Assembly (NCBI GenBank): GCA_030533135.1
Contig: JAUNJR010000002.1
Coordinates: 1 to 43,925 of the forward strand
Source of the DNA: Coriobacteriales bacterium
Lineage (GTDB): Bacteria; Actinomycetota; Coriobacteriia; Coriobacteriales; Atopobiaceae
Reading direction: 5' to 3'
Length of the DNA stretch: 43,925 bases
The first letter of the stretch is position 1. Each line of letters starts with the position of its first letter. Below, piece after piece: positions 1 through 43,257 of the stretch. The notes beneath the pieces are model-generated. The model had not been told where the DNA came from, did no database searches, and saw nothing but the letters and a program-made list of their open reading frames with translations. The translations under genes were made by a program, and so were the position numbers.

Positions 1-75
1 GGTGGGCCCAGAGGGATTCGAACCCCCAACCCAGGGATTATGAGTCCCCTGCGCTGACCGTTGCGCCATAGGCCC
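1..75 (-). tRNA. tRNA-Met (anticodon CAT); elongator type or lysidine-type tRNA-Ile2; terminal CCA cut by window edge
   Basis: The reverse complement folds as a cloverleaf: acceptor GGGCCTA/TGGGCCC, D-stem GCGC/GCGC, anticodon loop CTCATAA and T-arm GGGGG-TTCGAAT-CCCTC. The anticodon stem lacks the three consecutive G:C pairs of initiator tRNA. Confidence 0.85.
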
Positions 76-156
76 GTCGAAGGCATCAGTTACCTTACCA
101 CGAAACGTTCCGTGGGGCTAGCATCACGACGACGTGAAGTACCACCTCAACACAAT

Positions 157-184
157 AAAAAAGACGCCCTCATAAGAAGGCGTC
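157..184 (-). terminator. Rho-independent terminator downstream of tRNA-Ala
   Basis: On the minus strand, stem GACGCCTTC / GAGGGCGTC (9 bp, one G-U) with loop TTAT is followed by TTTTTT. Confidence 0.75.
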
Positions 185-193
185 CGGAAGATT

Positions 194-269
194 TGGTGGA
201 GAATAGGGGGATCGAACCCCTGACCTCATGACTGCCAGTCATGCGCTCTCCCAGCTGAGCTAATTCCCC
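194..269 (-). tRNA. tRNA-Ala (anticodon GGC)
   Basis: The reverse complement is GGGGAATTAGCTCAGCTGGGAGAGCGC...ATTCTCCACCA. It has the G3:U70 alanine identity pair, anticodon loop CTGGCAG and an encoded CCA. Confidence 0.95.
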
Positions 270-342
270 GTGGGTTGGTGCGGCAATTAATATACCAGAC
301 TGAAATTCTCGGTCAAGAACTTTTTTTGTTCACTACACTTAT

Positions 343-774
343 GTGTGGAGAATGCGTGCATCGTTTCTATCCGAGCCTTCTACAGATTGGATTGACATGA
401 ACAAGATTATGAAAAACCTCAAGCTTGCGTGCATCGCCTGCCTGTTCTTGGGTCTCGCGGCTTTGATCGTAGGCGTGGTTTCGGGCATCTCGACCGTCTT
501 TGATACTGACGCCATTGCCACCGTAGCATGCGGACTTGGCTCTGCTCCGGCTGGTGCGCAATCCTCGCGTTTGGCCAACGTTCCGTCAAATGCCGCTCAG
601 GTGAGGGCTATTTCGCTAGTCATCCTGCTGGGAACCACGGTCTTTGCAGTAGCAGCGTATATGCTGGGCAACCCAACACCGCTGCAGCTTGGCGCCTTTG
701 CATTGGTCTGGATTGCGGCGTTGCTCATGGCGATCTTTTCGCACCAAGAGGTTAAGCAGTTGGAGCGCGTGTAG
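343..774 (+). CDS. Small hydrophobic membrane protein, function unknown (start uncertain; ATG at 397 or 409 also possible)
   Basis: ORF with three or four hydrophobic helices (LACIACLFLGLAALIVGVV, AISLVILLGTTVFAVAAYML, LGAFALVWIAALLMAIF). I recognise no family. Confidence 0.5.
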   Translation: MWRMRASFLSEPSTDWIDMNKIMKNLKLACIACLFLGLAALIVGVVSGISTVFDTDAIATVACGLGSAPAGAQSSRLANVPSNAAQVRAISLVILLGTTVFAVAAYMLGNPTPLQLGAFALVWIAALLMAIFSHQEVKQLERV

Positions 775-841
775 TCTTCACGATATCGGCGCAAGTTTTT
801 AGTGCACCCGCGCCAAAGTTCTGCTACCATACCTTCTGCAC

Positions 842-916
842 GGGCGATTGGCTCAGGGGTAGAGCACATCCTTCACACGGATGGGGTCGCTGGTTCGAAT
901 CCAGCATCGCCCACCA
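842..916 (+). tRNA. tRNA-Val (anticodon CAC)
   Basis: Acceptor GGGCGAT/ATCGCCC, anticodon stem-loop CATCC-TTCACAC-GGATG, T-arm GCTGG-TTCGAAT-CCAGC and an encoded CCA. Confidence 0.95.
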
Positions 917-12906: not shown

Positions 12907-13009
12907 ACAGCTCCATGTCGTCACATTGAGCAGACATGTCGGCTGAAAATGATCTCATGGGGTACCATGTTGCCCAAGGAACACCAGCAATTTGCACATG
13001 GGGGAGCCC

Positions 13010-14416
13010 ATGCCCAAGATCGACCCAAAGGAATCCAAGCGCGCTGATTATGCCTCGACACGAGAGCAAGCCGACGGCGCGTGGATAGCGCATGTCGATG
13101 AAGGCAGCCCCGCTTGGGAGGCTGGTCTCGAGGAGGGCATGCGCATCCTGACGGTCAACGGTGTTGAGCTGCGCGACATCATCGACTGGCGCTGGGAAGC
13201 TGATGGCAATGAGGCTGAGCTTGAGGTGCTGATTCCTGGAGATGATGACGTCTACGGATGTGTGTTGGAACGCGTACCTGGTGAAGACTGGGGCGTTGAG
13301 TTTACGGACGTATTGTTTGACGGCATCCGCACCTGCGTGAATGCCTGTCAGTTCTGCTTCATGGCCATGCTTCCCGAAGACGCACGCGCCTCGCTTAGCC
13401 TTCGGGATGATGACTATCGCCTCTCGTTCCTGCAAGGCAATTTCGTTACGCTGACCAACGTGGCTGACGATGAGGTTGACCGCATCATCGAATGTCGTCT
13501 TGAGCCCATGAACGTTTCGCTGCACGCGATATCGCCCGAGGTCCGGCGCTCACTGATTGGCAGGCATGCACAGCGGGGAATCGAGGTCCTCGAGCGGCTC
13601 CTAAAGGCGGGAATTGAAGTTCATGGCCAAATCGTGCTCTGTGCTGGCATCAACGATGGCGACGAGCTGCGACGCACGCTTGATTGGGTCGAGCAATGGC
13701 CAACGTTCACGTCTCTGGCGCTCGTTCCCATGGGGTACACCAAGTATTCAAAGCGATTCTCGTCATCCTTCAGCGAGGATAAAGAGGCTTCGCGAGCTGT
13801 GGTCAAGCTGCTTGAACCTTATCAGGAGCGCGCACGGGCCGAACGGGGCATCACCAGATTCCAGCTTTCGGATGAGTTCTACCTTGATGCCGAGCTGCCA
13901 ATACCCTCAGCCGAGACTTACGACGGCTATCCGCAGTTCTACGACGGCATCGGCATGCTGAGAAGCTTCATTGACGAGACCGATGAAGTGTGCGCCACTC
14001 GGAAGCGCGAGCTTCAAGAGGTGGCCGAGAGCTTTTCACGTCAAGGACTTCGGGTGCTCTTAGTCTGTGGAGAGGCTGCCTCAAGTGTAATCGATGGCTT
14101 CTGTGACGCATGGGCGAACGCCACGTCGACTGGCTGGTCCTGCGCCAAGGGCTATCCCATCCGTAACGACTACTACGGTGGCGACGTCAATGTCACGGGC
14201 CTCATCGTAAGCCGCGACCTGCTAGCCCAGCTTCCCGGGGACCTGCATGGTACGGTCGTAGTCCTTCCCGAAGTCATGTTCAACTTTGACCAGGTAACCC
14301 TTGATGGCGATACCCAAGCACACATCCTTGAAGAGATAAGTGCGCGCGGGGGCATTCCGCTTGTTGCCCAGACCACACCTCACGCCATCTTGGATGCCCT
14401 TCTCACGCTCAGGTAA
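13010..14416 (+). CDS. DUF512 domain protein with N-terminal PDZ-like domain and radical-SAM-like Cys cluster (alternative starts 12992 TTG, 12998 ATG)
   Basis: It has a PDZ-like GSPAWEAGLEEGMRILTVNG, a CVNACQFCF cluster and DDDYRLSFLQGNFVTLTN. In my recollection this family commonly sits immediately upstream of der. Confidence 0.8.
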   Translation: MPKIDPKESKRADYASTREQADGAWIAHVDEGSPAWEAGLEEGMRILTVNGVELRDIIDWRWEADGNEAELEVLIPGDDDVYGCVLERVPGEDWGVEFTDVLFDGIRTCVNACQFCFMAMLPEDARASLSLRDDDYRLSFLQGNFVTLTNVADDEVDRIIECRLEPMNVSLHAISPEVRRSLIGRHAQRGIEVLERLLKAGIEVHGQIVLCAGINDGDELRRTLDWVEQWPTFTSLALVPMGYTKYSKRFSSSFSEDKEASRAVVKLLEPYQERARAERGITRFQLSDEFYLDAELPIPSAETYDGYPQFYDGIGMLRSFIDETDEVCATRKRELQEVAESFSRQGLRVLLVCGEAASSVIDGFCDAWANATSTGWSCAKGYPIRNDYYGGDVNVTGLIVSRDLLAQLPGDLHGTVVVLPEVMFNFDQVTLDGDTQAHILEEISARGGIPLVAQTTPHAILDALLTLR

Positions 14417-14427
14417 GGGACACGCCG

Positions 14428-16119
14428 TTAGTCAGCTCTGAGGTCCAGGTATATATCGTGAAGCACGTTGGCTCGTGATTCCCGGCACGCCTCAAGCACA
14501 GCCTCGCGTAGCGTGCAATCGCTTATCAGACGCCTTCCCGTGGCAAGGCAGAGCTCCGCGAGAGCCTTCTCCGTGCGTGACGGAGGCTCTTCAACGCGAG
14601 CACCCTGTGACGGGTCCGTTGGGAGCCACTGTCCCGTGCGTAGGCCCTCCATCTCCTCAAGGGAATCAACGCAGAGCATGAAGATCTGCATGCCAAGGGC
14701 ATCTTCATGACGCAAGACCGCCTGCTGTAGCTCAGCTGAGCCTTCAGAGAGGTCGATGTCGAATCGGGCAAACGGATGGCTGGGCAGCTTGCCGTCCACG
14801 TCACGCCGCAGCGCCGCATGCATGGAAAATGCCATGCGTATGTAGGCAAAGGCCACCTCATGCCGCGTGCAGCGGTCAATGACCCGTGCCAAGGTAATCG
14901 CGGAGAGACCAGCAGACCCCATTGAGCGTGCATTAAGGAACGGAGCCCAGAAGGCGAGACAGGAGTCATCTGCATCAGAGTCAGCCAACCACTCCATCAC
15001 CAAACGCTGAAAACGGCCACAGAAAGGCCTGTGCGCCTCCTCAGCAATGAGGATGAGCTCACGATACGAGGTGCTCACGAAAGCCTCGACAACCCAGTGC
15101 CGTAGCACCTCGTCACGCGGCGCGTCTCCATCCTCAAATAGGAACGTGCCATACCCAAGGCGAACCAGCGTCTCGAGGCTCTCAAAGCCACGCGCCGCCT
15201 GGACATAGGCCTTTGCGTAGGCGTGACGTTGCACGGGATCAGGATCTTCAAGTGCCTTTCGAAGCGTCTCGACGTCATAGTCGGTGAGCCGCTCTGAAGT
15301 CGCGGCAATCCGCGCTACCGCATGCGCACGCTCCTGGGGAGTCCTGAGAACGCGAAGACGCCACTCGCCAAAAAGGTCGGGCAGCTGCTCGTAACGCTCG
15401 AACGGAATAGCCGTGATACCACGGCTCCTCCACCTGGTGAAAAAGCGGCTCTCATTCTCCAAAACGAAGACGCGGTCCTCAAGCTCCGTGGAAATCGAGC
15501 GCGCGAGGTACTGCATGGGCATGTCGCGCAGGCTGTACCCCACAAGCAAAACGGTAAACCGCGCGAACATCTTGACCAGGAACCGCGCCACCCAGCCGTC
15601 CGAGACGTACGCGGAGCCAAAGTCTGAATCAACAAGAATCATCTCGTCAGGATGACAAATGTCTCCATGCAAGTGCACGATGCCCGTGAAGTCATTACCA
15701 AGTGGAAGCGCAGGGGAGGAGAACGTCCTCAGGTTCAACCCCAGGTTTGCAGCCGCCTGCTCAAAACGAAGGTCATAGTTCGTGGTAACGATGCGCGGAA
15801 TGCCGCCCTCAAACAATTTGACGATGTTTGTATGCAAGACGGACGGAGCGCCTGAGCCCATGACCTCGGCGCACTTGATCTTCATCGTGTGCGCGTCACC
15901 AATTCTTCCGAGGTACGACTCGTAGCGCTCGCTCTCATAACGCTGGGCCACCATTCCATCGGGGCTGACCGTCTTAGCAAGCCCTTCAATCAGCTGCGTG
16001 AAATCGGGAAGGGGATCGGGCGGCTGCATTGATACGCCAGCGCCGGCAAATATGACGAGGTTGTCCTCCTCGATGGCCTTGGTGATCACATCGGGTATCT
16101 CGATTCCCTGAATCTTCAT
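14428..16119 (-). CDS. SIR2-like (SIR2_2-type, predicted NAD+-consuming) protein with an uncharacterised ~350-aa C-terminal region; candidate stand-alone defence effector
   Basis: 563 aa from the ATG at 16119 (RBS AAAGGA). Motifs are NLVIFAGAGVS (aa 20-30), RIVTTNYD (aa 109-116) and GIVHLHGD (aa 146-153). It has no CxxC zinc-ribbon pairs. It is the only minus-strand gene inside a long plus-strand housekeeping run. Confidence 0.8.
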   Translation of the reverse strand: MKIQGIEIPDVITKAIEEDNLVIFAGAGVSMQPPDPLPDFTQLIEGLAKTVSPDGMVAQRYESERYESYLGRIGDAHTMKIKCAEVMGSGAPSVLHTNIVKLFEGGIPRIVTTNYDLRFEQAAANLGLNLRTFSSPALPLGNDFTGIVHLHGDICHPDEMILVDSDFGSAYVSDGWVARFLVKMFARFTVLLVGYSLRDMPMQYLARSISTELEDRVFVLENESRFFTRWRSRGITAIPFERYEQLPDLFGEWRLRVLRTPQERAHAVARIAATSERLTDYDVETLRKALEDPDPVQRHAYAKAYVQAARGFESLETLVRLGYGTFLFEDGDAPRDEVLRHWVVEAFVSTSYRELILIAEEAHRPFCGRFQRLVMEWLADSDADDSCLAFWAPFLNARSMGSAGLSAITLARVIDRCTRHEVAFAYIRMAFSMHAALRRDVDGKLPSHPFARFDIDLSEGSAELQQAVLRHEDALGMQIFMLCVDSLEEMEGLRTGQWLPTDPSQGARVEEPPSRTEKALAELCLATGRRLISDCTLREAVLEACRESRANVLHDIYLDLRAD

Positions 16120-16303
16120 GACGTTCCTTTTGCATCGCAGATGAGATGGCTCCATGCTACCCGTTTGTCGTCTCAGACTCACTGCAAGAAGTGTTTGACC
16201 ACGAGGGGCTCATGAGCAGGTTGTGCAAGGCTCCCTCGAGCGATGCCGTTTGGCCGACAGTGGTAAAGTTATATCTATATGTGAGTTTAGTAGGAGGAGC
16301 GTC

Positions 16304-17626
16304 ATGCCCAAACCTATCGTAGCTGTGGTGGGTCGACCAAACGTAGGAAAATCCACCCTTGTAAATCGCCTTGCTGAGACACGCGAGGCCATCGTTCACG
16401 AGTCGCGTGGCGTCACGCGCGACCGTTCGTATCACACGACCGACTGGAATGGTCGTGAGTTCGTGCTGATTGATACCGGCGGCATTGAATCCGTAAAGTC
16501 CAAGGACGTGTTTGCTCCACGCATTCGTGAGCAGGCGCTCGCGGCGTGCGACGAGGCAGACGTAATCGTCTTTGTCGTTGACGGCACGGTTGGCGTCACG
16601 GATGAGGACGAGGAGGTCGCGCGCGTCGTGCGCAAGGCTGACAAGCCGACGTTCTTGTGCGTCAACAAGCTGGATAACCCGGATAACGAGATGGCAGCTT
16701 GGGACTTCTGGTCGCTGGGTGTTGGTGAGCCGCGCGCCATCAGCGCCGGTCATGGCCATGGCACGGGTGACCTGCTTGATGACATTGTTGCTGCCTTCCC
16801 GCCGGAGACCGACGAGGAAGAGCCCGAGGACGACGCCCTGAACGTCGCCATCATCGGTCGCCCGAATGTTGGCAAGTCCTCGCTGGCCAATCGCCTGTCC
16901 AAGCGCAATCGCTCTATCGTGAGCGATGTTGCGGGCACGACACGCGATGCCATCGACACCATGATCGAGTGGAAGGGACAGCGCTTCCGCTTGGTTGACA
17001 CGGCCGGCATGCGCAAGAAGACGCAGGTACATGAGGACATAGAGTACTACAGCCTCGTGCGCGGGCTTGAGGCTATGGACCGTGCCGACGTGTGTCTGCT
17101 GGTCGTTGACGCTTCGGTTGGCGTGACCGAGCAGGACCAGAAGCTCGTCGGCATGGCCGTTGATCGCGGCTGTGCCTTGGTGATTCTGCTCAACAAATGG
17201 GACCTCATCACCACGGAGCAGCAGCGTGAGGAAGTCGCCCAGTCTCTGTCGCAGCGGATGAACTTCGCCCCGTGGGCTCCCTCGATCAACGTGAGCGCGC
17301 TGACAGGTCGCGCGATTGACAAGGTTCTGGAAGCAGTGGTCCGCGTGGCTGAAAACCATGCCCAGCAAATCCCCACGCCCAAGCTGAACAACCTGCTCAC
17401 GCAGCTGCGTGAATCTGGGCATACCGTCACCGACAAGGGCCGTCGCCTCAAAGTCAACTATGGAGCACAAACGGGAACCAAGCCGCCCGTCTTTACCTTC
17501 TGGTGCAATGCACCCGACCTCGTCGATGACAATTACGAGCGTTATCTTGAGAACCGGCTGCGTGAGGCATTCGATCTCACCGGTACGCCCATCCGCCTGA
17601 AGTTCAGGAAGAAGTCGGAGGACTAA
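16304..17626 (+). CDS. der: Ribosome-associated GTPase Der (EngA), two tandem GTPase domains plus KH-like domain
   Basis: Two G1 motifs are present, GRPNVGKST and GRPNVGKSS, each followed by DTGG/DTAG and NKLD/NKWD. The ATG at 16304 has an AGGAGG RBS. Confidence 0.95.
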   Translation: MPKPIVAVVGRPNVGKSTLVNRLAETREAIVHESRGVTRDRSYHTTDWNGREFVLIDTGGIESVKSKDVFAPRIREQALAACDEADVIVFVVDGTVGVTDEDEEVARVVRKADKPTFLCVNKLDNPDNEMAAWDFWSLGVGEPRAISAGHGHGTGDLLDDIVAAFPPETDEEEPEDDALNVAIIGRPNVGKSSLANRLSKRNRSIVSDVAGTTRDAIDTMIEWKGQRFRLVDTAGMRKKTQVHEDIEYYSLVRGLEAMDRADVCLLVVDASVGVTEQDQKLVGMAVDRGCALVILLNKWDLITTEQQREEVAQSLSQRMNFAPWAPSINVSALTGRAIDKVLEAVVRVAENHAQQIPTPKLNNLLTQLRESGHTVTDKGRRLKVNYGAQTGTKPPVFTFWCNAPDLVDDNYERYLENRLREAFDLTGTPIRLKFRKKSED

Positions 17627-18350: not shown

Positions 18351-19358
18351 GTGGGTCACAAGGTTGCCGTCATTGGTACGGGTACCTGGGGAACTGCCGC
18401 ATGTACCCTGATTTCTCAACATGTGGACGAGGTTTGCCTGTGGGCCAGGCGCCCGCAGATTGCCGAATCCATCAATCTCACTCGGCATAACCCTCAACAC
18501 CTCCCTGAACTTGAGCTTCCCGCTAAAGTACAAGCCTCAAGTTCCCTTCAAGAAGCACTTGAGGGTGCTTCTGAGGTGGTGCTGGCGGTTCCTTCGGCCT
18601 TCCTGAGGGCCACGTGCGAGAAGGCGGCGCCGTATGTCCGTGAGGACCTCCCCATTCTGGTGCTCACGAAAGGCATCGAGCCTGGCACGGGCCTTCTGAT
18701 GGTCGATCTTGTTGCCGATGTCTTCGGCCATGTCGAACGCGTTGCCGCGCTCTCTGGTCCAAATCATGCTGAGGAAATAGCTCAGGGAAAGATCTCGGCT
18801 GCCGTCATTGCTGCTTCCGATCAAGCCATCGCCGAGCGTTTTCAGAACCTGTTCGTGTCTCCGGCCTTCCGCGCGTATGCGAGCACCGACCTCATCGGTG
18901 TCGAAGTGTGCGGCGCGGCAAAGAACGTCATCGCCATCGCAGCTGGTGTCACCGCCGGAATGGATGCCGGAGACAATACGCTCGCGGTGGTCATGACACG
19001 TGGCCTTGCAGAAATCGGCCGCTTATCGGTTGCCTGTGGTGGCGACCCGTTGACCTGCATGGGCTTGGCAGGAATGGGTGACTTGGTCGTAACCTGCACA
19101 TCTCGTCACTCGCGAAACCGCACCTTTGGTGAGGCCTATGCAGCAGGAGAGACACTCGCTGAGTATGAGAGCCGCACCGGCATGGTCGTTGAGGGTGCTC
19201 AGGCAGCAATCTCAGTCTGGGAGCTTGCGCGCAAGCATGGTGTTGATATGCCTATCACCGACGCTGTGCACGCCGTGCTGTATGAGGATGTGTTGTTCGC
19301 CGATGTGCTAGACGGCCTGTTGGGTCGAAGGCCACACGATGAGTTCTACGGCATTTAG
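18351..19358 (+). CDS. gpsA: NAD(P)H-dependent glycerol-3-phosphate dehydrogenase
   Basis: VAVIGTGTWGTA Rossmann motif, LSGPNHAEE and GAAKNVIAIAAG blocks. GTG start. Confidence 0.92.
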   Translation: MGHKVAVIGTGTWGTAACTLISQHVDEVCLWARRPQIAESINLTRHNPQHLPELELPAKVQASSSLQEALEGASEVVLAVPSAFLRATCEKAAPYVREDLPILVLTKGIEPGTGLLMVDLVADVFGHVERVAALSGPNHAEEIAQGKISAAVIAASDQAIAERFQNLFVSPAFRAYASTDLIGVEVCGAAKNVIAIAAGVTAGMDAGDNTLAVVMTRGLAEIGRLSVACGGDPLTCMGLAGMGDLVVTCTSRHSRNRTFGEAYAAGETLAEYESRTGMVVEGAQAAISVWELARKHGVDMPITDAVHAVLYEDVLFADVLDGLLGRRPHDEFYGI

Positions 19359-29620: not shown

Positions 29621-30323
29621 AGCCCACTCCTCTCACGGTGGTGATGAGCTTGATGTTGTAGCGATCATCAATCTTTGAGCGAAGGTGGCGGATGTAGACG
29701 TCGATGATGTTGGTCTCGCCCACGAAGTCGTATCCGCAGGCCAGCTGTGCCAGGCGCTCCCGTGTCATGACGATGTTGAGATTCTCCATCAGGGCCTTGA
29801 GCACCTCGAACTCGCGATTGGTCAGCTCCACCGGCTCACCTTGAGCCATAACCTCATGGCGCTCAACATCGAGCGTCACACCCTTTGCCTGCAGGATATG
29901 GCGATTCGGATCAAGCTCCTCCGACACGGCAGCGCTCTCGGATGCATTAGCCGCAGCGTTGGCCTCGCGGCGCTTCAGTGCCACGCGGATGCGCGCCAAG
30001 AGCTCTTCGATGGCAAATGGCTTGGTGATGTAGTCGTCCGCACCCGCGTCAAGCCCCGCAACCTTGTCCATCACCGCGTCGCGCGCCGTCAGGAGGATGA
30101 CGGGCACGTCCTTCTCGCGACGGATGCGGCGAAGCACCTCCATGCCGTTGAGCTGGGGAAGCAAGATATCAAGGAGTATCAGGTCATAGTCATGGGAAAG
30201 GGCCGCATCGACGGCGGCCCGGCCATTATCGACCTTGTCAACCTCATAGCCCTCGTGCATGAGTTCAAGCTCGACGAAGCGCGCAATCTTTGGCTCGTCC
30301 TCTACCACCAGAATCTTCGCCAT
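29601..30323 (-). CDS. OmpR-family response regulator
   Basis: Receiver domain (KILVVEDE, DLILLDILLP, LTAR..) and winged-helix output domain (LTNREFEVLKAL..., RGVGYVI). It overlaps the kinase start by 20 nt. Confidence 0.93.
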   Translation of the reverse strand: MAKILVVEDEPKIARFVELELMHEGYEVDKVDNGRAAVDAALSHDYDLILLDILLPQLNGMEVLRRIRREKDVPVILLTARDAVMDKVAGLDAGADDYITKPFAIEELLARIRVALKRREANAAANASESAAVSEELDPNRHILQAKGVTLDVERHEVMAQGEPVELTNREFEVLKALMENLNIVMTRERLAQLACGYDFVGETNIIDVYIRHLRSKIDDRYNIKLITTVRGVGYVIREG

Positions 30324-30337
30324 GAGGTCCTCCTTGT

Positions 30338-30366
30338 AAGAAAAGGGCCCGGTTTGAGCCGGGCCC
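30338..30366 (-). terminator. Hairpin plus T-tract between the UBA-like membrane protein gene and the response regulator RBS
   Basis: On the minus strand, GGGCCCGG-CTCAAA-CCGGGCCC is followed by TTTTCTT, and the AAGGAGG RBS of the regulator follows immediately. Confidence 0.6.
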
Positions 30367-30380
30367 AGCTCTATAGTGAG

Positions 30381-30947
30381 CTATTCGTTCGTTTCGTTGT
30401 CCTTGGTAAAGTCGCGCTTGATGCTCTCAGCCATGCCAGCAGCCTTGTCCATGGCATCGTTGACGTCAAACGTCACAGGGCTGGCACCCTCAATGCGGTA
30501 ACGGAACCCGAAGAAGAGGCCGATGATGAGCAGCCACAGGGAGGCGCCCCAGGCCAAAAGACCAATGATGACCAGAATGAGGGGCAGCGCCACTACGCGG
30601 TCACCGTGGCGCTCGGCAATGAAGGTCATGTCGAAGCCCGACCTGATGATGCTGCGTGCCTGATGACGGAACTTATCCCACGTCTCACCAAACTTGGTCT
30701 TGCGGCTCTGCTCGCGGTACTCGGTCTGCGCCTGCTCCATCTCGGGGGAGACGGGACCGGCCTGGCCAGCCGTCGTGGCATAGCGAGCGGTCTTAGGCAT
30801 ATCAACCTTGCCAGCACGCTCAAGCCACACGATTGCGTCCAGCACATCGTAGTCGCAAGCCTCGAGTGCGTTGCGGGCCTCTTCAAAGGTGACACCGGCC
30901 TTCTCGCGTACGAGTTCGACCTTCTCAAGCTTCTCCATGATCTGCAT
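30381..30947 (-). CDS. Membrane protein with N-terminal UBA/EF-Ts-N-like domain (DUF4342-like); start at 30947 or 30938
   Basis: LVREKAGVTFEEARNALEACDYDVLDAIVWLE resembles the UBA-like N-terminus of DUF4342 proteins. A hydrophobic hairpin follows (VVALPLILVIIGLLAWGASLWLLIIGLFFGF). The listed longer ORF starts with TTG. Confidence 0.55.
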   Translation of the reverse strand: MQIMEKLEKVELVREKAGVTFEEARNALEACDYDVLDAIVWLERAGKVDMPKTARYATTAGQAGPVSPEMEQAQTEYREQSRKTKFGETWDKFRHQARSIIRSGFDMTFIAERHGDRVVALPLILVIIGLLAWGASLWLLIIGLFFGFRYRIEGASPVTFDVNDAMDKAAGMAESIKRDFTKDNETNE

Positions 30948-31008
30948 CCTTTCTGGTTGCTCTGGCGCGTTTTCGTCTTCGCCATCTGACAATCCGTATG
31001 ATGCCGTT

Positions 31009-32254: not shown

Positions 32255-33394
32255 TTATGGCAAGTCGCTCGTCGACTTGCCATAGTAAGGCTGAAGCTCA
32301 CCCTTCTCAGTGAAATCAAAGGCTAGGCCATCTTCTGCGCAGAGACAGCTACCAAACGTCCCCCTGTCCTTCCAAATAAGGTGTTGTCCAGCCTCCGTGG
32401 CCGCCACCCAATTCCAGTCATGCGACGTGACGGGAGAAGCTTGGTCCGCATAGATCCAGCAATGATGGTTCACGGAGTCATTGCGGAAGTACACGACGTA
32501 TGAGTCATCATTTTCGACGATAACGATGTCATGATCGAAATCGACAACCGCGCTACCGACCTCCTTTATCTCACCCTTATAGCCAATCTCTTGCTCGAGA
32601 TAGGAGTCGCGGTACCTGATACGAAATGGCGCGGCATCTCCCCACGAAAAATGCTCAAGGTAGTAGTGGTCATAGAGGGCATCAATTGATGTGCTCGCGT
32701 TCCTCAGACCAAGTGATTCGTACGAGAGGCCCGCTCGATCACGAATAGCAATGAGTTCCTCGAACGTGAACGCTGTCAAGTTCACGTTATCGCCAGGACG
32801 GACGTAGCAGTTGCAGGCCACCTTGCAACGAGATGAAGGGTCACGAAGCCACGCATCGACATCGTTCACCCCAGCTGGCAGCAGGTAATCAAAGTGCAGG
32901 TATTCGGTAGGCGCCTCACGCGACGATCCCTCTACGAGGAAGGGAACCAGCAGCTCAGCTCTCGGGGCCTCAACTTCCGTATCCGTAGGCAGTCCGAGTG
33001 CCTCGACCAGGTAGCTCGCAATCGCACCGTCAAGCGAGTTGTCCGTATCCTCCAGATAAACGTCCTTGCTAACCACGTTTAGAGCAAAGCGGTACTCAGC
33101 GCCATCGTCGAGATACGTCCCCTCAACATAGTCCGTGAGGTATGACGGACCACTGGGATATACAAAGAGAACGTTATCGCTGGACGTGATGGCCGTCCCC
33201 GGCTTGTTCTCGTCAAGCCAATCCCGCATGAGCTGGGTTCCCTCCTCAAGCGTCGCCGCCGCATCGGCATCGTCGTAACGCTGTCGTGGCATGAATGCCA
33301 GATACACCACCAGACCAAGAATCAAGGCAAGACACAGCAGGATGACTACGAGCACTGCAACCAAGCAGGTAATAATCGTCTTTTTGCGAACCAT
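32255..33394 (-). CDS. Hypothetical membrane-anchored protein (N-terminal transmembrane helix, ~340-aa extracytoplasmic region)
   Basis: The ATG at 33394 has a GAAGGGGA RBS. The sequence MVRKKTIITCLVAVLVVILLCLALILGLVVYLAF forms the anchor. No family recognised. Confidence 0.6.
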   Translation of the reverse strand: MVRKKTIITCLVAVLVVILLCLALILGLVVYLAFMPRQRYDDADAAATLEEGTQLMRDWLDENKPGTAITSSDNVLFVYPSGPSYLTDYVEGTYLDDGAEYRFALNVVSKDVYLEDTDNSLDGAIASYLVEALGLPTDTEVEAPRAELLVPFLVEGSSREAPTEYLHFDYLLPAGVNDVDAWLRDPSSRCKVACNCYVRPGDNVNLTAFTFEELIAIRDRAGLSYESLGLRNASTSIDALYDHYYLEHFSWGDAAPFRIRYRDSYLEQEIGYKGEIKEVGSAVVDFDHDIVIVENDDSYVVYFRNDSVNHHCWIYADQASPVTSHDWNWVAATEAGQHLIWKDRGTFGSCLCAEDGLAFDFTEKGELQPYYGKSTSDLP

Positions 33395-33536
33395 GGAATC
33401 CCCTTCATGGAAGGATGACATGCCTGTTTATCAAGTGAGGACACCAAATAGTATGCCTTAACGCTCATGGTACCGTAACGCCCACACGGTCTGATACGAT
33501 AAGGAGGTCAAAGGGGCACATATCGGTAGGAACACT

Positions 33537-43180: not shown

Positions 43181-43257
<77 letters not shown>

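Follow-up and report, generated by a model that had tools for sequence, protein, structure and literature searches.

A half-length Dsr1-like SIR2 protein at the DUF512-der junction of an Atopobiaceae genome, a candidate single-gene NAD+-degrading defence factor

The bacterial SIR2_2 (SIRim-type) proteins characterised so far are defence effectors with nicotinamide adenine dinucleotide (NAD+) glycohydrolase activity, and they are usually activated by a change in oligomeric state (10.1101/2021.12.14.472415; PMC12700824; PMC13454610). The zinc module on which deacylation by canonical sirtuins depends is missing from SIR2_2 proteins (PMC12700824), and the SIRim/SIR2_2 clade is strongly associated with defence overall (10.1101/2024.09.18.613514). 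ThsA and KomC have been shown experimentally to be NAD+ glycohydrolases (NADases) that are activated by oligomerisation or filamentation (PMC13454610; PMC12700824). The trigger of Dsr1 is the phage major capsid protein, perceived by a bilobed repeat sensor (PMC12803255); for DSR2 it is the tail tube protein, which is bound by a HEAT-like C-terminal domain (PMC11850899). Here, we describe a related gene in a stretch of 43,925 nucleotides (nt) from a gut or rumen Coriobacteriales bacterium of the Atopobiaceae (GenBank assembly GCA_030533135.1, contig JAUNJR010000002.1, positions 1 to 43,925), the whole of which is called the window. The gene lies on the minus strand at positions 14428-16119, and a preliminary description of the sequence had presented it as a stand-alone SIR2-like predicted NADase and a candidate single-gene defence system. 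SIR2 domains fused to assorted helical regions are common; the description that suits the present protein best is that of a half-length Dsr1-like sirtuin, and its features are the following.

14428..16119, minus strand: complete coding sequence of the half-length Dsr1-like SIR2 protein (563 residues and a TAA stop), from the translation, Pfam SIR2_2, the match to the Dsr1 N-terminus and the AlphaFold2 (AF2) model.
15346..16119, minus strand: predicted SIR2_2 (SIRim-type) catalytic domain, residues 1-258, with a Rossmann-type alpha/beta fold in the AF2 model and with Foldseek and PDB sequence matches.
16030..16050, minus strand: predicted NAD-binding glycine loop FAGAGVS, residues 24-30, with F24, G26, A27, G28 and S30 invariant.
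15778..15780, minus strand: codon of N114 (VTTNYD, residues 111-116), the predicted catalytic asparagine, with T112, N114 and D116 invariant and aligned with TTNYD of KomC.
15667..15669, minus strand: codon of H151 (IVHLHG, residues 147-152), the predicted catalytic histidine, with H151 and G152 invariant and H151 aligned with H146 of KomC.
14620..15345, minus strand: predicted proximal alpha-solenoid, residues 259-500, homologous to residues ~260-530 of Dsr1-like proteins of ~1,165 residues.
14431..14619, minus strand: variable C-terminal tail, residues 501-563, a low-confidence loop followed by three helices.

The Pfam SIR2_2 profile (PF13289) matches residues 109-233 with an E-value of 5.6e-20 and 72.3 bits, against a gathering cut-off of 24.5, and the residues marked above as invariant are so in 46 homologues. 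The placement in the SIR2_2 family that had been proposed from three motifs is supported by both results, and the positions given for FAGAGVS, for N114 in VTTNYD and for H149 and H151 in IVHLHG were verified exactly. By sequence, KomC (the SIR2 NADase of the Kongming system) and ThsA are the nearest of the solved proteins; in the PDB sequence search, H151 was aligned with the KomC residue that is changed in the H146N mutant structure 9xvc. As had been noted, no CxxC zinc module is present in the 563 residues, whose cysteines lie at positions 83, 155, 367, 387, 417, 483, 524, 535 and 545, and the model of canonical-sirtuin deacylases gave a trace match alone (NCBIfam NF001753, E-value 0.17, 10.8 bits against a 243-bit cut-off). 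The best PADLOC matches were two Dsr1 models (E-values 3e-30 and 5.5e-25) over the N-terminal ~230 positions, followed by ThsA (1e-9), which places the SIR2 domain in the Dsr1 subtype. The NCBIfam equivalog model of Dsr1 (NF041818) gave 104.5 bits against a cut-off of 1,400, over model positions 6-231 of 1,263, in agreement with the earlier remark that no described system is matched over its full length. The full-chain AF2 model, built on the alignment of the 46 homologues, has a predicted local distance difference test score (pLDDT) of 92.3 and a predicted template modelling score (pTM) of 0.82. The top Foldseek neighbours of its N-terminal domain are exclusively defence NADases, namely ThsA, DSR2 and KomC/KomBC (PDB 9V0G was identified as the KomBC complex via the fold-search table), with template modelling (TM) scores of 0.63-0.69 to the SIR2 domains of ThsA, DSR2 and KomC when normalised to SIR2-only chains. 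Collectively, the window protein is of the SIR2_2 type, free of a zinc ribbon and with intact predicted catalytic residues.

Residues 259-563 are all-helical in the AF2 model except for a small hairpin. The C-terminal region modelled alone reaches a pLDDT of 93.1, and in both the full-chain and the C-terminal-only models the pLDDT dips at residues ~495-515. A fold search with the C-terminal region alone returned no significant match; weak matches at E-values of at least 0.04 were to HEAT/ARM-type solenoids such as symplekin, the PP2A A subunit and karyopherins. Judged from the models, the region is an alpha-solenoid, of the same domain class as the repeat sensors of DSR2 and Dsr1 (PMC11850899; PMC12803255). 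Its identification with the MID or C-terminal domain of DSR2, or with any solved sensor, was unsupported by the fold search.

Residues 256-563 were searched exhaustively with HMMER against 1.84 billion cluster representatives, and only 11 proteins were recovered, which are members of the short family of the window protein and eight proteins of 1,160-1,198 residues. The region of homology spans residues ~260-530 of the long proteins and reaches residue 568 in P0119. The window protein is collinear in blastp with their first ~500 residues at 30-41% identity (to 553 with P0119). SIR2_2 is the sole Pfam domain of the long proteins (P0114-P0120 and P0122), and their best defence model is Dsr1, matched at the N-terminus only with 121-166 bits against 1,400. 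Because even these relatives of ~1,165 residues reach just such scores, they are Dsr1-sized and Dsr1-like without the status of Dsr1 equivalogs, and the whole clade is a sister family to Dsr1. Since the C-terminal homology is confined to the short family and the long Dsr1-like proteins, and the distal half is absent, the window protein represents the N-terminal half of a Dsr1-like sirtuin, that is, the SIR2 domain and the proximal solenoid without the distal ~600 residues. Two points of the preliminary description have to be revised here: it had treated the C-terminal region as an unknown stand-alone domain, where homology to the long proteins is found instead, and it had dismissed DSR1 on grounds of length.

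Several of the long relatives adjoin integrase, helix-turn-helix (HTH) or other genes of mobile or defence type, and more distant relatives adjoin integrase, HTH/ImmA, RelB, AAA_21, Fic and Schlafen-AlbA_2 genes. One of the distant relatives, P0016 (L105:414-2114), is preceded by the gene of a 566-residue Schlafen AlbA_2/HATPase_c_4/HTH protein, a gene type that is often found near defence loci; the C-terminal ~70 residues of P0016 itself, which are rich in Arg and His, resemble an out-of-frame translation.

The ratio of nonsynonymous to synonymous substitution rates (dN/dS) against a 68%-identical homologue is 0.14 for the SIR2 domain, 0.15 for residues 259-500 and 0.52 for the last 63 residues; these figures are rough, as synonymous sites are near saturation, though the proportion of nonsynonymous differences (pN) is far below that of synonymous ones (pS). 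Both domains are thus under purifying selection, and the tail is fast-evolving. Family members have lengths of 475, 537 and 561-569 residues, the tail being absent or shortened in the relatives of 475 and 537 residues. The 475-residue member, P0004 (L099:6001-7428, also in L100 and L101), shares 72% identity with the window protein, whose final ~90 residues have no counterpart in it. Because only 13 nt are left before the DUF512 stop, its shortening is due to a 3'-end deletion rather than to a nonsense mutation with a remnant.

The gene is read without internal stops from position 16119 to 14428. The frame stays open to a GTG at 16182, which would give an alternative product of 584 residues, and the ATG at 16119 is the better start because a Shine-Dalgarno-like sequence (AAGGAA) lies upstream of it and homologues align from residue 1. 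The surroundings of the gene are organised as follows.

12992..14416, plus strand: upstream flank, a PDZ/radical-SAM-like/DUF512 gene by Pfam, the anchor of the junction census.
14417..14427, no strand: spacer between the convergent stops of the DUF512 and SIR2 genes, 11 nt, without a terminator-like hairpin.
16120..16303, no strand: divergent intergenic region from the SIR2 ATG to the likely der ATG, 184 base pairs (bp).
16304..17626, plus strand: downstream flank, der (EngA GTPase) by Pfam, with its start from orthologue alignment, followed by plsY and gpsA.

Exactly 11 nt, as had been stated, separate the TAA of DUF512 at 14414-14416 from the minus-strand TAA of the SIR2 gene at 14428-14430, and the tight convergent arrangement recurs with 25 nt in L001 and 13 nt in L099. 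The start of der is most likely the ATG at 16304 (MPKPIVAVVGRP) rather than the GTG at 16223, and the divergent intergenic region therefore measures 184 bp; it presumably holds the promoters of both the SIR2 gene and der. Scans for the sigma-70 consensus and for terminators around the SIR2 gene gave nothing above the expectation from shuffled sequences. The SIR2 gene is the sole minus-strand gene in a co-directional run from ~4.7 to 23.4 kilobases (kb), which bears out the earlier observation, and the plus-strand run has the same synteny as that annotated in a related contig. No partner gene adjoins it, both neighbours being housekeeping genes (DUF512 and der), and the earlier view of a lone gene agrees with the lack of any specific defence-model match among the window's other large ORFs outside the operon. 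Downstream of der, gpsA is present between plsY and rpe in the window (18351-19358), L014, L015 and L099, and is missing there in L001 (4992-6517), L016 and several other species; the operon downstream of der therefore varies too. Four transfer RNA genes (Met, Ala, Val and Pro) are located at the ends of the window (1-916 and 43181-43257), none of them near the SIR2 gene. Two open reading frames (ORFs) of the window, at 29685-30989 on the plus strand (434 residues) and at 32255-33421 on the minus strand (388 residues), match no Pfam family at an E-value of 1e-5 or below, and the latter has no PADLOC match either.

A census of the DUF512-der junction was made with one genome per species, which gave 80 Atopobiaceae loci anchored on DUF512. 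The two genes are less than 300 bp apart in 45 of the 80 species, so that the adjacency given in the preliminary description holds; the gap is 300-500 bp in seven, the junction is rearranged in four and 11 loci are uninformative. Cargo of at least 0.8 kb is found in 13 species. The SIR2 gene occupies the junction in only one species of the census (L016, the same species as L001), and a third lineage with the gene at the junction, L099, was found via its protein P0004, so that the carriers are three lineages: the window, L016/L001 and L099. The closest species, L014 and L015, whose Der proteins are 95% and 93% identical to that of the window, have empty junctions of 133-142 bp. The gene is an accessory one, polymorphic in its presence at the DUF512-der junction. 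The concatenated DUF512 and Der sequences are 87.6% (L014), 86.0% (L015), 84.8% (L099) and 82.8% (L016) identical to those of the window, against ~78% in the outgroups, and the SIR2 identities of 71, 68 and 67% follow the same order as those of the flanking genes. The most economical history would be a single insertion in the common ancestor of the five lineages with one loss in the L014/L015 branch, with which the native guanine-cytosine (GC) content, overall and at third codon positions (GC3), and the absence of bracketing repeats are consistent. Neither direct nor inverted repeats were found around the gene, and junction DNA alignments with the empty L014 and L015, as well as with L016, were too diverged to show any insertion boundaries. 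The proposal of an inserted gene could thus be retained as far as its accessory nature is concerned, and not in the sense of a recent arrival, given the native composition, the lack of repeats, the junction shared by three lineages and the apparently vertical descent.

Outside the junction, a second subfamily of 537 residues, 59-63% identical to the window protein, and a 561-residue member occur alone in three unrelated contexts. The metagenome-assembled genome GCA_017460265 (RGIG4340; L015 and L013) has an empty junction, yet carries the 537-residue member P0006 elsewhere, flanked by a GH1 gene and a gene for a MocR-like HTH-aminotransferase. At L007:3851-7906, the 537-residue SIR2 gene adjoins a GH1 gene broken into pieces of 119 and 247 residues, together with a Fic/RhuM-domain gene and a short methyltransferase ORF of 132 residues; this looks like a decaying or variable region. 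An origin of the window gene from a prophage or plasmid was considered and is unsupported by the searches of the corresponding collections given below. Other cargo at the junction comprises a GH3-ChW surface protein, an EAL-domain protein and SLH/VgrG3-like_C wall proteins, at the following loci.

L052:7430-10891, minus strand: junction cargo.
L044:7377-9281, minus strand: junction cargo.
L057:7460-8905, plus strand: junction cargo.
L075:7418-9121, plus strand: junction cargo.
L083:7400-9376, plus strand: junction cargo.

The junction is a recurrent insertion spot, variable but no defence island. In Olsenella sp. An290 and An270 (L041:7437-11903 and L047 at the same coordinates), it holds the gene of a 745-residue beta-propeller protein followed by that of a 739-residue TIR_2-WD40 protein, of which PADLOC matches the TIR part only; this pair could be another candidate defence pair of NADase type at the same junction.

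Versions of the long proteins divided between two ORFs are also seen. P0019 (645 residues) is followed by a 513-residue ORF in ~10 contigs from several samples, and the pair has fused counterparts in P0021 (75-79% identical) and P0119; a DSR-type protein seems here to have been truly split in nature. At L094:6509-10492 (also L095 and L096), an HTH_XRE gene precedes the 645-residue SIR2 gene and the 513-residue ORF, which corresponds to the distal half, and the locus adjoins a phage-type integrase and a NikA-like gene. P0017 (578 residues) stops where the window protein stops in the alignment, and a 583-residue distal ORF that weakly matches Dsr1 model positions 921-1121 lies downstream of it; this split may be an artefact, because it is seen in a single contig and is 90% identical to the fused protein P0116. 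Among the loci searched, matches to the distal half are confined to the split loci L094-L096 and L098.

Taking these data together, we propose, with about an even chance of being right, that the window protein is a self-contained, trigger-activated NAD+ glycohydrolase whose proximal solenoid serves as a sensor or regulatory domain. In the uninfected cell, the enzyme would be held inactive. A molecule derived from an invader, for which the examples of Dsr1 (major capsid) and DSR2 (tail tube) make a phage structural protein the likeliest candidate, would bind to the alpha-solenoid and alter the conformation or oligomeric state of the SIR2 domains, whereupon NAD+ would be hydrolysed and phage replication slowed or aborted. 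The NADase activity, the trigger, the oligomerisation and the defence phenotype are all inferred by analogy. A role in defence is supported because the active-site residues are invariant, the zinc ribbon is lacking and both domains are constrained; because the best defence model and the structural neighbours are all defence NADases, and the SIRim/SIR2_2 clade is itself tied to defence; because the C-terminal region is shared with long Dsr1-like proteins alone outside the short family and is a solenoid like the DSR sensors; because the spread is accessory and patchy (three junction lineages against 45 empty-junction species, with lone copies in three other contexts); and because distant relatives adjoin integrase, HTH/ImmA, RelB, Fic and Schlafen-type genes. 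A more specific form of this proposal, in which the short form (~540-570 residues) is a complete minimal DSR whose proximal solenoid alone senses a phage trigger or infection cue and switches on the NADase, is tentative and in our view rather doubtful.

Several observations weigh against a defence function. The distal half left no trace in the 44-kb window, either in tblastn or in a profile search of the six-frame translation at an E-value of 1 or below, and none was found within up to 8 kb on either side of any short-family locus, where the contig allows; if the bilobed Dsr1 sensor and the C-terminal domain of DSR2 are a guide, this missing half would carry a major part of the sensor. The match to the curated Dsr1 model stays far below its cut-off and covers only the N-terminal fifth. 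The SIR2 gene sits outside any defence island, as the window's other large ORFs outside the operon gave no specific match to defence or mobile-element families in Pfam or PADLOC, the sole PADLOC match being to the ATPase domain of a histidine kinase. Its GC content of 0.582 and GC3 of 0.674 are native, and vertical inheritance within a small subclade is indicated because SIR2 divergence tracks that of the flanking genes across the three lineages. Moreover, no close relative of the protein was found in the phage, plasmid and IMG/VR viral-contig collections.

Alternatively, a Dsr1-like gene could have lost its distal sensor half and been domesticated, the SIR2 and proximal modules being kept for a non-immune NAD-consuming role, for instance in regulatory turnover of NAD+ or in modifying a host target by ADP-ribosylation or deacylation. 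Continued purifying selection on a gene without its sensor half, native composition, vertical inheritance and a place within a housekeeping operon by der, with no defence or mobile genes nearby, all fit with such a history. We nevertheless consider it unlikely: the gene is dispensable, as ~65 other Atopobiaceae species do without it and the L014/L015 lineage has lost it, paralogous copies exist in unrelated contexts, all structural and sequence neighbours are defence NADases, and SIR2_2 proteins are without the zinc module required for deacylation (PMC12700824). If instead the protein were an effector working with a sensor subunit that is homologous to the distal half and encoded at another place in the genome, the recurrent P0019 pair with its fused counterparts P0021 and P0119 would be a precedent, and P0017, which ends where the window protein ends and is followed by its distal half, another. 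This arrangement seems quite improbable, since partners in defence are normally adjacent, no distal half was found in the window or within up to 8 kb on each side of the short-family loci, and the P0017 case, from one contig and 90% identical to a fused protein, may be artefactual.

The loss of a possibly autoinhibitory or sensory part could also have left a constitutive NADase without a sensor, a toxin-like selfish module that is harmless through low expression, perhaps because transcription running out of the convergent DUF512 operon interferes with it, and that is retained by addiction-like effects. The convergent stop spacing of 11-25 nt without a terminator, kept in three lineages, would be in line with this. 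The idea is, however, very unlikely in our estimation, for no antitoxin candidate is present, the lone copies at other loci lack the convergent DUF512 arrangement, and activation of Dsr1-like enzymes by truncation is not reported in the DSR2 structure literature searched. Least credible of all is a functionless, decaying pseudogene fragment of a long Dsr1-like gene, which would account for the half length relative to the nearest long relatives and for the variants of 475, 537 and 561-569 residues. It is largely refuted because the catalytic residues are all invariant and dN/dS is low (~0.14-0.15 in both domains against a homologue with near-saturated synonymous sites); in addition, the frame is intact in many species and the whole chain folds confidently in AF2.

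Should the short form prove active in defence, no smaller architecture of DSR type would be known, and it would serve as a natural experiment on the part of the helical region that sensing and restraint of the NADase require. If the proximal solenoid alone is the receptor, the distal ~600 residues of Dsr1-like proteins would be dispensable or modular, and the short proteins would form a new compact single-gene defence family missed by current defence-finding models. That model-based annotation misses such derivatives is illustrated by the score of the window protein against the PADLOC and NCBIfam Dsr1 models, of which only the N-terminal fifth is matched. If the protein is a domesticated or sensor-less remnant, the finding would be an ordinary one. 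To our knowledge, almost nothing is known about the defence biology of gut and rumen Actinomycetota, and the present case suggests that accessory, possibly toxic genes can settle for the long term in their housekeeping operon junctions. A conserved DSR with a halved sensor inside a housekeeping operon poses a clear question about the purpose of the distal half.

Compared to the described systems, the window protein shares most with Dsr1. Both are single polypeptides with an N-terminal SIR2_2 domain followed by helical repeats, Dsr1 is the best-scoring defence model for the window protein (E-value 3e-30) and for all its relatives, and in the related long family a weak match to Dsr1 (model positions 921-1121) is found in the distal half as well. 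However, the window protein has 563 residues against ~1,250 and is without the distal helical half; the Dsr1 architecture, a chain of ~1,200-1,260 residues with a bilobed repeat sensor (PMC12803255), is not found in it. The long Dsr1-like sirtuins are the sole proteins outside the short family that share its C-terminal region among the 1.84 billion representatives searched, and differ in carrying ~600 more residues, of which neither the window nor any short-family locus has a counterpart. The likeness to DSR2 of Bacillus subtilis (PDB 8wy8 and 8wy9, among others) lies in the SIR2 fold (Foldseek E-value ~1e-8, TM ~0.65-0.69 to SIR2-only chains), in the order of a SIR2 domain and then helical regions, and in size, which corresponds to that of the SIR2 and MID parts of DSR2 together (residues 1-547; PMC11850899). 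The two are set apart by the absence of a PADLOC Dsr2 match at an E-value of 1 or below, by the C-terminal-only model, for which no DSR2 chain appears among the 50 matches listed, and by the lack of a counterpart of the tail-tube-binding HEAT-like C-terminal domain.

Among solved proteins, ThsA of the Thoeris system and KomC come nearest to the catalytic domain in both structure and sequence. ThsA differs in having a SLOG domain and in needing ThsB, whereas SIR2_2 is the only Pfam domain of the window protein and no TIR family was matched in Pfam or PADLOC among the large window ORFs outside the operon. KomC is a SIR2-only protein of ~270 residues that works with KomA, KomB and a dITP signal, which the window protein is without. 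As for SIR2-HerA, SIR2-pAgo (SPARSA), Avs5 and Kongming, no HerA, pAgo, STAND NTPase or KomA/KomB is adjacent or fused to it, and the PADLOC SIR2 models of HerA type match only stretches of ~20 residues at E-values of at least 1e-5. The PADLOC candidate PDC-S25, a single SIR2 protein of ~520 residues, is matched with an E-value of 8e-8 in the SIR2 core only (residues 73-215 against model positions 102-247 of 517). By these comparisons the protein corresponds over its full length to none of Dsr1, DSR2, ThsA, SIR2-HerA, KomC and PDC-S25, and no description of a half-length DSR form was found in the literature searched. By analogy, it would work most like a DSR-type single-chain sirtuin and probably descends from a sister family of Dsr1-like proteins.

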